Under the pieces are notes generated by a model, which worked only from the letters and a program-made list of their open reading frames with translations, was not told the DNA's origin and did not search any database. 64,000 nt of DNA from Negaprion brevirostris. Taxonomy: Eukaryota. Positions 3,081 to 55,089 of this stretch are shown piece after piece (the stretch's first letter is position 1; each line of letters starts with the position of its first letter). The translations under genes and the position numbers were made by a program. The stretch spans positions 38,728,593 through 38,792,592 of the forward strand of contig JARDVH010000073.1 in NCBI GenBank assembly GCA_030324005.1. Direction: 5' to 3'.

Positions 3081-4608
3081 TCTGGATGGTGGGGGTTATA
3101 GAGAGATTGATAGATACATGTCATTGCTTGTAACTATCCCCAGCCCTCCAAAGAACTACATATGCCACTCTTAAGCAATTTCTTAGGTGGTGATTTATAA
3201 ATGATGCTAACAGAGCTCCTAGGAGAAGATTACAGAGCAGCTGTACTTAACTGGGAAATGATATGCGTTGGAGGAGAAATAGCTTGGGACACAGAGAGGT
3301 AACCTAAAATAGGGAAAGAAATAATTCAAACTTTAAAAAGAAACTAGTGAGCAGTACCTTGTTGACATTGCCTAGTAAAATACATTCCTGACATGCAGAA
3401 AGTGAAAATTCGTGCTGTTCACATACATAAACTCTGAAGCTTGATTTATTGTATTTTATTTGTAGTGTTTCAAGGGTGTTGAAAATTGTTTTCAAATCTT
3501 GGATTGGTTTCAAACAAACTTGAAATTGAATCTAAATATATGCCTATGAAAAGAAAATTAAATATTCAAAGCTTTCCTGTCACATAAGACTAGTCAGGAA
3601 AATTCTGTGTGTTAATTATACTAAAACAAAACAAACACAACAAACTCAGGAGCTCGCAGCTGTTACTGAATAAAATACAAAGCTGAATCCTACAACATTC
3701 TAATAAAGCCCATATTCTACTAAACACTGTCAGAAATTTGGAACATTTCAAACTTGCTTTTGTTGAGATAGATCCCACACAGAGATTAACCCAGTACTAA
3801 AAACATACTATAAAATGGACTGATTAACTTAAAAAGGACAAAATTCTATTTCCCCTTGGACCAAAATATGGCTGTTATTTATCATCCTTTCAATAGTAGT
3901 TTTCAAGCTCCCAAGATGGTGAGAATTTGAAGTTGAGACATACCCTATTTTGCACTGTTGTTGTTGTGTGGTCTCTTTCTAACTGCTGCTATCTGTGGAC
4001 TCCACCATATGGGCATGCTGCTTAATTAGTTCATCAGAATGTATATTGACTAACCTATACCCCTATACTCTGTTACCCATCGTTACAGCCCCTCACAGAT
4101 GTTATGATAACCCATGCCTTCCACTCGTGCTGATGGATCTTTATAACCCTAATGGCAACCTAATGTCAACATGCCAACTCATGCCTCCCATCCACCACCC
4201 TTTTCCTTTCATCCCCTCCATGTCAACCCACCTCAGGAACCATGCTGACATCAAGTTGTCTCTATTGATGACTTAATTTATTTTAATAAAATACACTCAT
4301 TGACAAAAAAATCAATACACTGAAATTCCTGAAAATGTATTCTGGAAAAAAAAATTCTATTCTATAGCCACTTGGAGTCAAACTGCTCATTTAACAGGCA
4401 TCCAGTGTATTAATGTTAAATTGTAATATCAGTCCTTTGGCACAAATCCTGTAATGGTAGTCCCCAGGCATATGTCAACAGACAAGGAAGAAATGTCAAG
4501 CACTAGTCCTTTTTTAAATTCAATTTAAAGTTCAGTAAATTTTGTGACAGTACTGACATTTCTCTGACAGCGTGGACAGTTTTAATGAGTTTATTCATTT
4601 TTATTTTT

Positions 4609-4850
4609 ACCCATGAAATGGGAGAGCACTCTCCCGAAAGGGGGGCCAGGAGGAGGAGGATGTGGAGGTCAAGGCAGTACTGGACCAGGAGGTCCTTTGA
4701 GAGCCTTTCAGAGACCATGTGCCATCGCTGGCTCTGCCTGTCTAAGGATACGATCCGGCACTTGTGTGAGGTCTGAGCACACCTGGCATCTCGGGAGGGG
4801 AGGCCACTGCTATCACCTTAGCTTCCAGCAGGCCTCAGTCCACAGATGCG
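4609..4850 (+). mobile_element. Second Harbinger transposase fragment, an inverted diverged copy of about 2724-2942
   Basis: Encodes RRRRMWRSRQYWTRRSFESLSETMCHRWLCL versus RRRRVQRPRWYWTRRSFESLSEATCHCWLCL on the opposite strand at 2709-3080. Confidence 0.85.
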
Positions 4851-35594: not shown

Positions 35595-37163
35595 ACCGTG
35601 TTGTGTTGCTCATAAAACACTACCTTGGGATGGTGGGGTGGATGTTGCCCATACAACACTATGTTGGTACGGTGGGATAGGTAAGGTGTTTAACTCGTGG
35701 TCTCTTGTTCTATTTGAAAGGTTTATGCAAACTGGTGGACTCCACTTTGCACCCCAAATTCATGTTCTTTCAGGGCACCTTCTCAGCGTCAGGATTTTGG
35801 GCTGGTGTCTCTTGCAGTCTTACTTTCAAATGTCTCCCACCTAGGTGGGTGCTGCACTCACAGCTGGAACAGAAGTATACTAACAGTGGTGATAATTCTT
35901 AACATTATTTGTTTTTTTGTTTACAGATGAACTGCAAAATTCACCCTGAAGTGCTACAGATACATAAAGAATGGAAATTAGACAAAATGATGGTTTTTCA
36001 GGATAGGAATAATAAACAGCGGGAAATAATGTTGTTGAACTAGAATAAAAAAAAACACTTCCCATACCTTGAACCATTTAAAGCCAAAGTTGTTGCACTC
36101 ATGCAAACTTTCATTAACATGCTTCACACGGGCATTGTGCAGCATAATGGAATAAAAGAAAGAGAAGCATGCAAAGTATTTACTAGAAGATCAGGAAAAA
36201 GCACTTAAATGCAAATTCCATTGTTTTACAACTATTTACACACATTTACATTCATTTAATAATCATTTGTAGGTCACATTTTACAGACATATTTGAACAG
36301 AAGGTACGCAGGTTGTTGTCAATGTAATGTAAAAGCTAGAATGCCTTTAAAAATAGGCTACTATAAATTTAAGAAAAATATTCCTTGCCATTAATTATTC
36401 TAATAAAATGTAAGCAAGTTGAAAAAGATCAGAAATCCTTAAGAATATCTTTGCTATGTTCCTTTTCCCAAAATCTTTTGTTTTCATTCCATTCCTCATC
36501 ACCCAATGCTTCTCAAGAAAAGGAAGTAATAAAAGTAATAAATTCTTAATGCTGCTCTTGTGTTGTCTAATGCAAAACTCACAAACCAACTCCACCATGA
36601 CTCAAGGGACATGATTGATCATGTTCACATAATTAGTCACATAGCATGTTTCAGAACTATTCTCCAGCTACAGAAGTTAATTTTTGAGATGTTACAGTCA
36701 AGTAATCGCTATCATTTCTGTACATTCCATCCAAAATGGCAGAACAGAGGGCTTTTTTCTGTCATGACGTTAAACAATATGGCCATTCAATACATGCACA
36801 CAAATACATCTATTTCACTAAGATCTTACATAATCTTAATGCATAGTTCATCCAGACTTTCTTTTCAATGTATACCAGTTGACAAGCACTCTTGATCAAA
36901 TACTGAAAACAGGCTAAAATGGATTCATCTAGTTTAATATTGAATATATGATAACGAAATATTCACTGTCTAATCATGTACAATGGAAGTAAGATTGCTT
37001 GCTTTGATGAAGATATTCACTGCATGTAGATTCACCGGGGACAATCTTAACTCACTGCTATTGGCAATAATGACCTCAAAATGGTGTTGGGATAGGTTTC
37101 CAACCCTTTTAATACAAGTCCAACTGTTCTATTTTTACAGGAGTTGACAACTGGATGGCTAAA

Positions 37164-37342
37164 TTCTCGGCCTCTTGGCTAAGATCAAGTGCAGTATCGA
37201 CATGCTGCACTTCGTTGAAGTCATTAGGTTACATTTCAGCTTCATTTGAAGCAATTTTTTAAAGCGGCATCTGGGCCTTTGGGCTAAGATGCAAATTAGA
37301 TCAAGCCTTGGAGGTGGAGCTACACCTACTCCAAACAGCTTG
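37164..37342 (+). ncRNA. U2 snRNA-derived dimeric structured element, truncated by the gap at 37343-37717; candidate U2-headed SINE or small RNA, not a canonical U2 gene
   Basis: 37164-37198 matches U2 nt 6-40 at 33/35. 37270-37290 matches U2 nt 7-27 at 19/21. Hairpins at 37187-37212, 37239-37252 and 37302-37342; AATTTTTT at 37253-37260. Confidence 0.7.
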
Positions 37343-38934
37343 NNNNNNNNNNNNNNNNNNNNNNNNNNNNNNNNNNNNNNNNNNNNNNNNNNNNNNNNNN
37401 NNNNNNNNNNNNNNNNNNNNNNNNNNNNNNNNNNNNNNNNNNNNNNNNNNNNNNNNNNNNNNNNNNNNNNNNNNNNNNNNNNNNNNNNNNNNNNNNNNNN
37501 NNNNNNNNNNNNNNNNNNNNNNNNNNNNNNNNNNNNNNNNNNNNNNNNNNNNNNNNNNNNNNNNNNNNNNNNNNNNNNNNNNNNNNNNNNNNNNNNNNNN
37601 NNNNNNNNNNNNNNNNNNNNNNNNNNNNNNNNNNNNNNNNNNNNNNNNNNNNNNNNNNNNNNNNNNNNNNNNNNNNNNNNNNNNNNNNNNNNNNNNNNNN
37701 NNNNNNNNNNNNNNNNNTGAATTCAGTGAGCTGCATCAAAGCTTTGTTTTGGTACCAGCAATTGGCAAATTCTATTTAAAGCAGGACTGGATCTCAAATT
37801 AGCTCTGGATTCTTATGCCAATCCCATCTACTGAGTTGGATGCCCAAAAGATAAATTCCATCCCATTGATTCATGCACAGCATGTAATGGAGGGGAATTT
37901 CACTGCTTGTCAAAATGAAGAATGTATCTGGGTGGAGAATGTTTTTCCAACTTTCAAAAAACATTTGTTCTACTAGTAAGTTGATAGTAATGTAGAATGC
38001 AATAAAATTAACTATTTGAGTAACTTGCTCAGTTATTGTTTAATCCTGGGTTTTGGAAATGTCAGAACAAAACATTGTCTAACTAATGATGCAGTAACTG
38101 AGGCAAACAGTTAAGAAAAGCTAGATAAGAACCTGATGAGGGAGAAAAGAATAGAAACATTTACACAAACGGTTAGATGAAATAGGGAAGGAGGATTATG
38201 TACAGTATAAACAGCTGTTTGAAATAATAGGGCCAAATGGCATTGTAAATTCCATGTAATGCCAACCCAATAAGAAATGGCACAAAAACAAATGGCAAAC
38301 TAGGTGACATAATCAAAACCAAAAAAAAAACAAAAGAACGCAGTACCTGGGAATTACATAAGCTTCTCCTTTGCAAATTATTTCTACCTTCAAAGTGGCA
38401 CATAGCAATCCTTGATGTTCGCTTCATATCCATATCAACAGAAATCATTGCAAATGAAATCAAAGTAGAATCGCAGAAATGTTACTATGCAGCAGAAGGT
38501 CATTCGGTTCATCATATCTACACCAGCTTTCCAAATGAACGCTCATTTAATGCCATTCTCCCGCTTTCCCTCTGTAACCGTGTACATTTCTCCATTTTAG
38601 ATAACTGACTCATTCCCTTTCAAATGCTTCAATTGAACCTGCCTCCACCACTTTCAGGTATTGCATTTCAGATCTTAATCACTCTGTGGAAAAGTTTTCC
38701 TCATGACACTTTTGCTTCTTTTGAAGTGCATGACATCACCATGTTACTTGCACCTTGCTTCCAATGTCTCCTGGAAACCAAGGCAGAAAAATGGTAGGCA
38801 CAAAAGTGGGCATACAGCTGATGCATTGGATCCTAACCCGTAGGCATGCTTGTCCAAACACTCCACAATTTGATTGGACTAATGGAAAATTTTGGATGTT
38901 GCACCTGAAAAAGCACCACAATCTCAAGCAATGT

Positions 38935-47790: not shown

Positions 47791-47926
47791 TAGCTAGTAT
47801 AACAGTTTAAACACAGAATACGTTCAATATTAAAAGTATATATGGATGATAGAGAAGCATTAATATTAATTAATAAAAATGAAAATGAAAATTCTGCACA
47901 GACTGATGGTTGCACATAATACAGAC

Positions 47927-48058
47927 CTGTTTCTCAGAATTGTTCCTGGCAGCTTCTTCTTGTGCTAATACCATCTCACGTTCCGCTGTTATCTGCACAC
48001 TCTCTCTTAAAGCCTCCTCTAATTCCTCAATCCTGTCATCTTTTTGTCGTAAAGTATC
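47927..48058 (-). CDS. ERC1: ERC1 (ELKS/RAB6IP2) internal coding exon, 132 nt, 44 aa of coiled coil
   Basis: Translates to DTLRQKDDRIEELEEALRESVQITAEREMVLAQEEAARNNSEKQ, nearly identical to remembered vertebrate ERC1 DSLRKKDDRIEELEEALRESVQITAEREMVLAQEESARTNAEKQ. Acceptor ttccttcag|GAT and donor CAG|gtctgt; phase 0/0. Confidence 0.95.
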
Positions 48059-52809: not shown

Positions 52810-53560
52810 TCTGTCTGCTTATTACTTGAATGGGTGTAAATTGAGAAAAGTGGATACTCAGTAGAACCTTGGAGTTCTCGTGCATCAGTCGCTGAAAGTA
52901 TGTGTGCAGGTATAACAGAGAGTGAAGGCGGCAAATGGTTTCTTGGCTTTCACAGCATGAGGATTTGAGTATAGGAGTATTTTGCTGCAATTGTTTAGGA
53001 TGTTGGTAAGGCCACACCTGGGATAATGTGTGCAATTTTGGTGTTCTTATCAGAGGAAGGATGTCCTTGCTATAGAGAGTACAGCAAAGGTTTATCAGGC
53101 TGATTCCTAGGATGGCAGGTCTGTCATATGAGACAGACTAAGCCGGTTAGGATTGTATTCGCTGGAGTTTAGAAGAGTGAGAGGGGATCTCACAGTAACT
53201 TATAAAATTCTAACAGGGTTAGACAGGGTAGATTCAGAAAGAAAGTTCCCGATGGTGAGGGGAATCCAGAACGAGGGGTCATAGTTTGAGGATAAGGGGT
53301 AGGACTGAGGTGAGGAGAAATTTCTTCACCCAGAGGGTGGTGAATCTGTGAAATTCACCACCATAGAAAGTAGTTGAGGCCAAAATGTTATGTGATTTCA
53401 GGAAGAAATTAGATATAACTCTAGGAACTAAAGTGATCAAAGGATATGGGGGCAAAATGGGAGCAGGGTATTAAATTTGATGATCAACCATGATCAAAAT
53501 GAATGGCAGAGCAGGCTTGAAGGATCCAATGGCCTACTCCTGCTTCTGTTTTCTGTGTCT
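52810..53560 (+). mobile_element. CR1 LINE 3' end
   Basis: ttggtaaggccacacctgg...agaaatttcttcacccagagggtggtgaatctgtg...atggcctactcctgcttc. Confidence 0.85.
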
Positions 53561-53719
53561 CAAAACCTTTAGAATTTAGATTTTTTATGAATTATGTATA
53601 TATTTTTTAAAAAGATATATAACACCCATTGCGAGAGACATAGAAGCCTTTGATTTCATTATGGGTTTATGTATTTTCCAAAGATTCTTGTTGTCTCAAT
53701 TCCCAGAACAACCTGCAGA

Positions 53720-54435: not shown

Positions 54436-54940
54436 CTATAGAGAGTACAGCAAAGGTTTATCAGGCTGATTCCTAGGATGGCAGGTCTGTCATATGAAGA
54501 GAGACTGAATTGGTTAGTGTTATATTCATTGGTGTTTAGGAGAGTGAGAGGGGATCTCATAGAAACTTATAAAATTCTAACAGGGTTAGACAGGGTACAT
54601 TTAAGAAGAATGTTCCCAATGGCGGGGGGAGTCCAGAACTAGGGGTCATAGCTTGAGGATAAGGGGTAAATCTTTAGAACTAAGGTGAGGAGAAATTTCT
54701 TTACCCGGAGAGTGGTGAATCCGTGGAATTCACTACCACAGAATGCAGTTGACACCAAATTGCTGTCTGATTTCAAAAATAAATCAGATATAGTTCTTGG
54801 GGCTAAAGAAATCAATGGATATGGGGGAGAAGGGGTATTCAGGATATTAAATTCTGTGATCAGCTGTGATCAAAATGAATGGTGGAACAGGCTCAAAGGA
54901 CCGAATGGCCTTACTCCTGCTTCCAGTTTCTATGTTTTCC
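54436..54940 (+). mobile_element. CR1 LINE 3' end
   Basis: RRNFFTRRVVNPWNSLPQ; same subfamily as 53070-53560. Confidence 0.88.
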
Positions 54941-55089
54941 TTCCTGCTATGTTCCGATAATCATTTTTCTTATTCCAAATTTGCTCTTTTGTCTTGTCTT
55001 CTCCATTTAATCTATCACATTTTCCCAGACTTGATCCCTCGCCCCCACTATTGAGTTGAGTGACCTCTCTGCTGCCCTTGCTTTATGCT

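Follow-up and report, generated by a model that had tools for sequence, protein, structure and literature searches.

We think it probable that positions 37164 to 37342 of the window (the whole 64,000-nucleotide stretch of Negaprion brevirostris DNA that we analyzed) hold a decayed member of a poly(A) retroposon family headed by a piece of U2 snRNA, whose source copies lie in U2 genes, are transcribed from the U2 promoter, and are moved by a Keno-like LINE. The family occurs in high copy number with one layout, falls into subfamilies, and carries target-site duplications in a third of its complete copies; a few copies are linked to U2 genes, and U2-headed LINEs are present in the same genome. 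According to this model, source copies would sit inserted at U2 nt 38/39 in U2 genes, where the U2 promoter would drive their transcription, and the transcript would be polyadenylated at AATAAA and then copied by the LINE. A free U2 5' end on such a transcript could attract factors of the U2 snRNP or base-pair with U6 or with introns; the inverted arm that follows the head would keep this end away from contacts with the snRNP and the spliceosome, and selection on the source copies would maintain the helix. Most new copies would land promoterless at unrelated sites and then mutate neutrally, as the window copy appears to have done (U34>C, G55>C).

The copy in the window and its altered base

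U2 numbering was taken from a U2 gene of the same genome (L031), with U2 nt p equal to window position 37158+p. The features of the locus are these.

37164..37342, plus strand: U2-headed short retroposon, younger subfamily, 5' 179 nt (element nt 6-184)
37164..37198, plus strand: U2 snRNA head, U2 nt 6-40 (Rfam U2 match; U2 gene L031)
37169..37230, plus strand: predicted fold-back helix, U2 nt 11-39 with inverted arm nt 44-72
37174, plus strand: T16>C, marking a branch of the younger subfamily; unpaired in either fold
37192, plus strand: U34>C in the branch-point recognition motif, sporadic, U-G to C-G
37213, plus strand: G55>C, breaking the C28-G55 pair and reducing the 15-bp core to 11 bp; C in 1/90 copies
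37239..37263, plus strand: small hairpin, then U-rich single strand (fold and Rfam alignment)
37267..37292, plus strand: internal second copy of U2 stem I, base extended
37298..37342, plus strand: duplicated hairpin module 1 of 2, cut by the gap (alignment, fold)
37343..37717, no strand: N run of 375 nt, hiding the tail, the poly(A), and any target-site duplication of the window copy

The copy is 96% identical to the majority row of the younger subfamily. On either side of it lies a coiled-coil exon of the minus strand (near 47,900-48,000 and 22,900), which we take to be exons of ERC1/ERC2, and the copy is antisense within an intron of this minus-strand gene. The second stem I reached an alignment score of 47 against a shuffle mean of 12 (0/500 shuffles as high), and the match between hairpin modules 1 and 2 scored 37, which was again reached by 0/500 shuffles. 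Elsewhere in the window, long inverted repeats at 2727-2943 and 4608-4825 (83 and 134 nt, 86-87%, ∼1.7-1.9 kb apart) adjoin the decayed reading frame of a transposase-like protein (2309-2713) and are probably what is left of a DNA transposon. Two tandem CR1-like 3' ends at 53070-53564 and 54436-54941, 1.37 kb apart, share an identical 62 nt.

A preliminary description of this DNA had drawn attention to a new 11-bp hairpin enclosing an altered U2 branch-point recognition sequence. Read directly, 37187-37212 does form a stem of 11 bp with one G-U pair and a 4-nt loop. Its 5' arm is, as described, U2 nt 29-39 with GUAGUA turned into GCAGUA by U34>C at 37192; the changed base gains pairing, a U-G pair becoming C-G, and the second U2 mismatch pointed out there is T16>C at 37174. 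Comparable hairpins number 8 in the window against 0-3 per shuffle (10 shuffles) and are thus uncommon, and the 183 nt at 37160-37342 fold at -66.5 kcal/mol (z = -5.6). The 11-bp hairpin is no novelty, however: throughout the family, U2 nt 11-39 fold back onto nt 44-72, and the hairpin is the inner section of this longer fold-back, which at 37169-37230 encloses it together with two 2x2 internal loops. The core of this fold-back is 15 bp in the family, and the window copy has 11 bp because the G>C change at 37213 (G55>C) breaks the C28-G55 pair. U2 stem I, said to be intact, is so in sequence, but the predicted fold-back dissolves it (pair probability 0.0 in both subfamily majority rows); in the window copy, nt 12-22 pair with downstream sequence at a predicted probability of 0.8.

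The altered motif did not hold up as a family trait, since exact 22-mer matches in the genome numbered 9 for the C form (GCAGUA) and 416 for the T form (GUAGUA). For copy-level statistics we used 90 of the first 100 listed matches of a body 21-mer (the 90-copy set). With the anchor placed outside the 5' arm, C34 was found in 4/87 of these copies. For comparison, seven further T sites in the stem show T>C at a rate of 3.6% (p = 0.39), and T sites taken all together at 1.9% (p = 0.08). Copies with C34 belong to both subfamilies, and the variant is not linked to subfamily markers (p 0.40 and 0.48; 162 copies). Its rarity, its frequency near the background rate, and the lack of marker linkage rule out U34>C as a selected or subfamily change, and the same copy breaks another pair through G55>C. 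The base change that prompted the finding is ordinary, and on sequence grounds both changes look like neutral decay of one dispersed copy. Stem transitions that keep pairing (38/1,268 cells) and those that break it (25/764) are equally frequent (p = 0.79), so the dispersed copies appear to decay neutrally. C16, by comparison, is linked with T157 (p = 6e-5), and together they mark the window copy's branch of the younger subfamily. C16 also recurs in U2 fragments of L020 and in the LINE head L290; we looked for a separate U2 gene carrying it and rejected this source, the sole exact match being the upstream fragment of L020.

It is very improbable that this locus encodes a functional U2 variant, or a regulatory RNA, whose branch-point motif was changed and compensated under selection. 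The pair strengthened by U34>C would fit such an RNA, as would the Rfam alignment of the U-rich tract to the Sm site, though this strand (within 37239-37263) lacks the G that closes the U run of the U2 Sm site. Against it, the Rfam U2 score of the window copy is 41.9 bits, below the cut-off of 46, and comes mainly from 37164-37198. U2 nt 41-191 was not detected in the whole element body, where 74/500 shuffles scored equally well; restricted after the fact to module 1 alone, the same comparison was equaled by 1/500. C34 is sporadic, the second change in this copy breaks a pair, and the copy lies antisense in an intron. The U2 upstream region, which has 4 matches genome-wide, has none before the window copy. 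A functional U2 snRNA gene is largely refuted by the lack of any detectable part of stems II, III, or IV and of an upstream promoter match. Searches of the window for tRNAs and Rfam families gave no tRNA, no match at the Rfam cut-off, and no known RNA family or ribozyme.

The retroposon family and its fold-back helix

A DNA search of the animal's own genome yielded 2,371 candidates, with 40 scored copies at 92-100% identity, and one body 21-mer had 1,098 exact genomic matches. From this 21-mer count and an identity of 93-95%, we infer a total of roughly 3,000-5,000 copies. The element is also present in sequencing runs from 9 organisms and 12 studies; no RNA data set was among the runs listed, which has no bearing on expression. 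A complete copy is ∼305 nt long, non-coding, and poly(A)-tailed. From the 5' end it consists of U2 nt 1-40, the inverted arm, a small hairpin, the U-rich strand, and the second U2 stem I, followed by two duplicated hairpin modules, a 3' hairpin, GATTG-type repeats, AATAAA, and the A tail. The junction between head and body was constant at nt 40 in the copies examined. Tracts of T4 and T5-6 occur inside the element, which disfavors Pol III transcription; transcription from U2 promoters is likely. A classical Pol III SINE with a tRNA, 7SL, or 5S head was rejected on the same tracts and on the lack of a tRNA or of an Rfam match at cut-off.

The 90-copy set splits into 49 older, 16 younger, 14 mixed, and 11 unassigned copies, and identity to the respective majority is 93.2% for the older and 95.5% for the younger subfamily. 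Thirteen copies of the set start at nt 1, and the others are 5'-truncated. Target-site duplications of at least 9 bp flank 26/81 complete copies, compared with 5% of shuffled pairings; the remaining 55/81 have no duplication of this length, and no sequence preference was evident among 89 SINE 3' flanks. One copy (L073:1460-1770) has its 5' ∼95 nt inverted and resembles the twin-priming products of L1-type reverse transcription. At seven loci (L058, L067, L071, L025, L027, L057, and L063) two to three element copies lie within 1.5 kb, some parted only by a short duplicated target, which points to repeated use of one site.

In the majority rows of both subfamilies, nt 44-72 repeat nt 11-39 in inverted form without any gap, and 25/29 positions pair. 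The helix has 2x2 loops at nt 16-17 and 23-24 and contains 7-9 G-U pairs and no A-C; GUAGUA is predicted to be paired in both rows, and the fold of the element has a z of -7.0. Bases 20-22 of U2 pair with U6. Nucleotides 25-28 also pair with U6 (helix Ia), and nt 33-45 make the branch helix (as given in the available text of PMC13019295). The predicted helix would dissolve stem I and cover bases that pair with U6 and with the branch point.

Departures of the arm from a perfect complement are not spread evenly. With the terminal nt 10/73 mismatch left out, they fall on 9/18 sites where a G-U pair could result and 0/11 sites where A-C would result in the older subfamily (p = 0.005), and on 7/18 and 0/11, respectively, in the younger (p = 0.02). 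This bias is what one would expect if source copies keep an RNA helix under selection, and it suggests that they do. The same element and partner might, in an unlikely alternative, carry the fold-back as an unselected relic of one inverted duplication, its G-U pairs having come from A-to-I editing and CpG decay. Editing of double-stranded RNA by ADAR yields A>G changes, and the A>G changes of the arm at nt 46, 49, and 56 (and 51 in the older subfamily) match this; nt 50/51 and 72/73 resemble CpG decay, and the head helix shows no two-sided covariation, as a relic would. Editing and CpG decay can thus account for part of the asymmetry. Editing cannot yield the C>T changes at nt 58, 63, and 71, however, and a relic sits badly with the complete lack of A-C mismatches among 11 possible sites and with two LINE 5' designs that pair the same U2 segment through other arms (see below).

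Two-sided covariation was looked for in an alignment of 27 heads, hand-picked and not a random sample, in which 0/25 head pairs had changed on both sides. Two-sided covariation is not to be expected in dispersed, neutrally decaying copies. The stem differences between subfamilies are one-sided wobble changes at nt 38, 50, 51, and 195, or the exchange of T252-A263 for C252-G263, a compensatory change in the 3' hairpin (counts 30, 5, 11, and 52; p = 4e-11) that amounts to one event. The early proposal of a structure under selection is partly borne out by the G-U bias of the family arm but not by the base singled out for it, which is sporadic, nor by covariation of the head. Its suggestion of an inverted duplication made during reverse transcription fits insofar as the 3' arm repeats the U2 head in inverted orientation; it had been offered as an alternative to masking, but origin by inverted duplication and a masking purpose are compatible.

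U2 genes and a LINE partner

An A run directly before U2 nt 39 onward occurs at three places in the genome. At L091 the element's A tail is followed by U2 nt 39-110. At L096 a LINE 3' end with a short extra piece lies within a U2-variant array, the LINE ending at U2 nt 38/39, and the second unit of that array holds a bare A-rich insert; at L090 there is a gap upstream of the A run. Two more loci join the 5' side to U2 genes. L242 holds a full element after ∼40 nt of U2-array upstream spacer (0/500 shuffles) and an extra U2 12-57 piece. L131 shows a homologue of the U2-gene upstream region (87% over 133 nt) and then a U2 head broken near nt 40 by a Tx1 piece; this piece is 5'-truncated, and its junction bases fit SINE or LINE and can be read as Tx1 alone. 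The decayed promoter and head at L131 (G000:C115:499000-508999) are also interrupted by a 23-nt tandem repeat, and the exons on either side presumably belong to MLH3. Intact elements preceded by an intact U2 promoter were not found in this assembly, in which many copies have gaps and U2 upstream regions are few. A U2-like site opens the 3' flank in just 3/89 SINE copies, and U2 lay downstream of 0/14 LINE 3' ends examined (from 19 loci), so homing is rare.

Two variants of the head, C23 and C16, are seen again in U2 units or U2 fragments. One tandem array of divergent U2 variants (L239, G000:C157:37354992-37356174) has a 492-bp period and a C at nt 23, and related arrays (L096, L266, and L275) hold LINE insertions. 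Dispersed full-length U2 sequences that extend 30-60 nt beyond the mature 3' end without an A tail (L035, L039-L042, and L044-L046), some with flanking duplications, are likely retrocopies of U2 precursors. Three U2 genes with an additional head A and a different 3' half (L032, L033, and L034; two on small contigs) may derive from another organism in the assembly.

The LINE encodes an APE-type endonuclease (Exo_endo_phos), a reverse transcriptase (RVT_1), and an ORF1 of RBD_ZCCHC3_2nd-like type, and we take it to be of Tx1 type. Its 3' ends number ∼1,300 candidates, mostly dispersed. Of 33 loci inspected at its 5' region, 13 reach the 5' end and 11/13 of these have a U2 head; L266 and L275 lie directly behind U2-array spacer. 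Full-length LINE 5' ends with U2 heads were noted at L264-L268, L273, L278, L290, L292, and L296 (e.g., G000:C84:42881341). A SINE copy directly adjoins a LINE at L058, L132, L215, and L245, and two of these four loci are among 100 listed 21-mer matches. We rejected the LINE as the source of the element's body or tail, as neither had a match below E 0.09 in 34 LINE loci or any in the LINE parts of 20 more. Judged by sequence, a Keno-like Tx1 LINE likely moves the element; Utopia is unlikely as the partner because the LINE has an APE-type domain.

The U2 heads of the LINE come in two 5' designs, with the junction at U2 nt 35 or at nt 31-40, each with its own complementary arm; in the first, A23-A24 lie in a 2x2 loop, at the same position as in the SINE. 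Folds were computed for the heads of 11 loci. Nine are predicted to pair with downstream sequence, nt 12-15 at 0.89-0.99 and nt 18-22 at 0.77-0.97; in these nine the motif for branch-point recognition is either truncated or left in a loop (mean pairing 0.28-0.71). Neither the U2 gene nor L291 and L295, where U2 1-57 is joined to 5'-truncated LINEs, has a fold-back. Masking, which the preliminary description had applied to the branch-point-pairing region, is predicted for a different stretch: what the heads of SINE and LINE have in common is cover over U2 nt 12-22, often as far as nt 28, and the branch-point motif is not part of this shared segment.

It is quite unlikely that the copies arise from unrelated upstream promoters and that the U2 head was added or renewed by a template switch onto U2 snRNA during reverse transcription, a mechanism proposed for crocodilian SINEU (Kojima 2015, PMC4494074). 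Extra 5' U2 pieces at L017, L020, L242, and L264 and the fusions of U2 1-57 to 5'-truncated LINEs at L291 and L295 do look like switch products, and L091 and L242 themselves could be template-switch chimeras. However, these extra pieces, on both SINE and LINE, end at nt 54-58, whereas the junction of the element is fixed at nt 40. The flanks before nt 1 look unrelated in 11/11 copies chosen for a full head, which also speaks against this origin, and the one shared flank that was found, at L242, consists of U2-gene spacer, a sequence absent from mature U2 RNA.

Returning to transcription from U2 genes, we tentatively extend it to a wider proposition. Retroelements of U2 genes may time and again acquire an antisense arm that breaks up the fold of the U2 5' end they have captured, as in the SINE and the two LINE designs, whose sequences differ; the arm might let a transcript from the U2 promoter escape snRNP assembly and snRNA-type 3' processing, and such promoter theft with self-masking might be how snRNA-headed SINEs are generally transcribed. 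The fold-back common to SINE and LINE hints at a rule for mobile transcripts that carry a piece of a spliceosomal RNA.

Comparison with known systems

Like R2, which is cotranscribed with 28S rRNA genes (as cited in PMC4494074), the element probably has no promoter of its own and relies on transcription of a host RNA gene; unlike R2, it shows no sign of a 5' ribozyme cut, and its longest copies start at U2 nt 1. It also resembles 3'-truncated U2 retropseudogenes and snRNA-LINE chimeras, in which a 5' fragment of U2 fronts a retrocopy (PMC4494074). It differs from them in its fixed body and junction, its subfamilies, and its more than 1,000 copies, and because one body and junction recur on this scale, we regard it as a replicating family and not as a set of independent chimeras.

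Two LINE families that target U2 genes, Keno (Tx1 clade, APE endonuclease) and Utopia (RLE), insert at the same site and share a 3' U2 flank (PMC4640811, PMC4494074); the number nt 38/39 for this site was read from sequence here. As with these families, some insertions are followed on the 3' side by U2 starting at nt 39 (L091 and L096), and as with Keno, there are full-length APE-type LINEs behind U2-array spacer (L266 and L275); the LINE combines APE, RT, and a Tx1-type ORF1. Unlike Keno and Utopia, the element is non-coding and most SINE and LINE copies are dispersed, and the likeness to Keno is one of domains and insertion site.

No description of an snRNA-headed SINE in cartilaginous fish was found in the available literature text (PMC5499810 on elephant shark SINEs, PMC4758252, and PMC5786205 included), and a database entry may exist. 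The class itself is already known: crocodilian SINEU-1, -2, and -3 have been described, with none outside crocodilians and their transcription left unexplained in the available text of Kojima 2015 (PMC4494074). The shark element has the marks of that class, an snRNA head (U2 nt 1-40) on a short, non-coding, poly(A), multi-copy unit of fixed structure, and likely represents an independent SINEU-like family in a vertebrate lineage other than crocodilians, tied to U2-gene flanks and with a U2-headed LINE partner. New in our analysis are counts across the whole genome, a test of the C variant, statistics for the subfamilies, and the predicted fold-back of LINE heads.

The comparison with SINEU was made by description (PMC4494074). 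Differences include the lineage, and no preference for Mariner targets came to notice here; in addition, the available text on SINEU mentions no antisense arm of 29 nt over the head, and some shark copies are tied to U2-gene flanks and the Keno site. The body of SINEU-3 is an internally deleted U2 gene lacking, according to the same text, the middle 83 bp of U2. In common, both are short (<500 nt) non-coding retroposons with a U2 head, a second internal U2 piece, and a poly(A) tail, and both have an inner oligo-T, variable duplications, extra 5' snRNA pieces, tandem arrangements with U2-headed Tx1 LINEs, and no tail in common with the LINE. Internal T tracts were the argument against Pol III for SINEU as well (Kojima, PMC4494074), and source copies inside U2 genes would give the question of SINEU transcription left by that study a testable answer.
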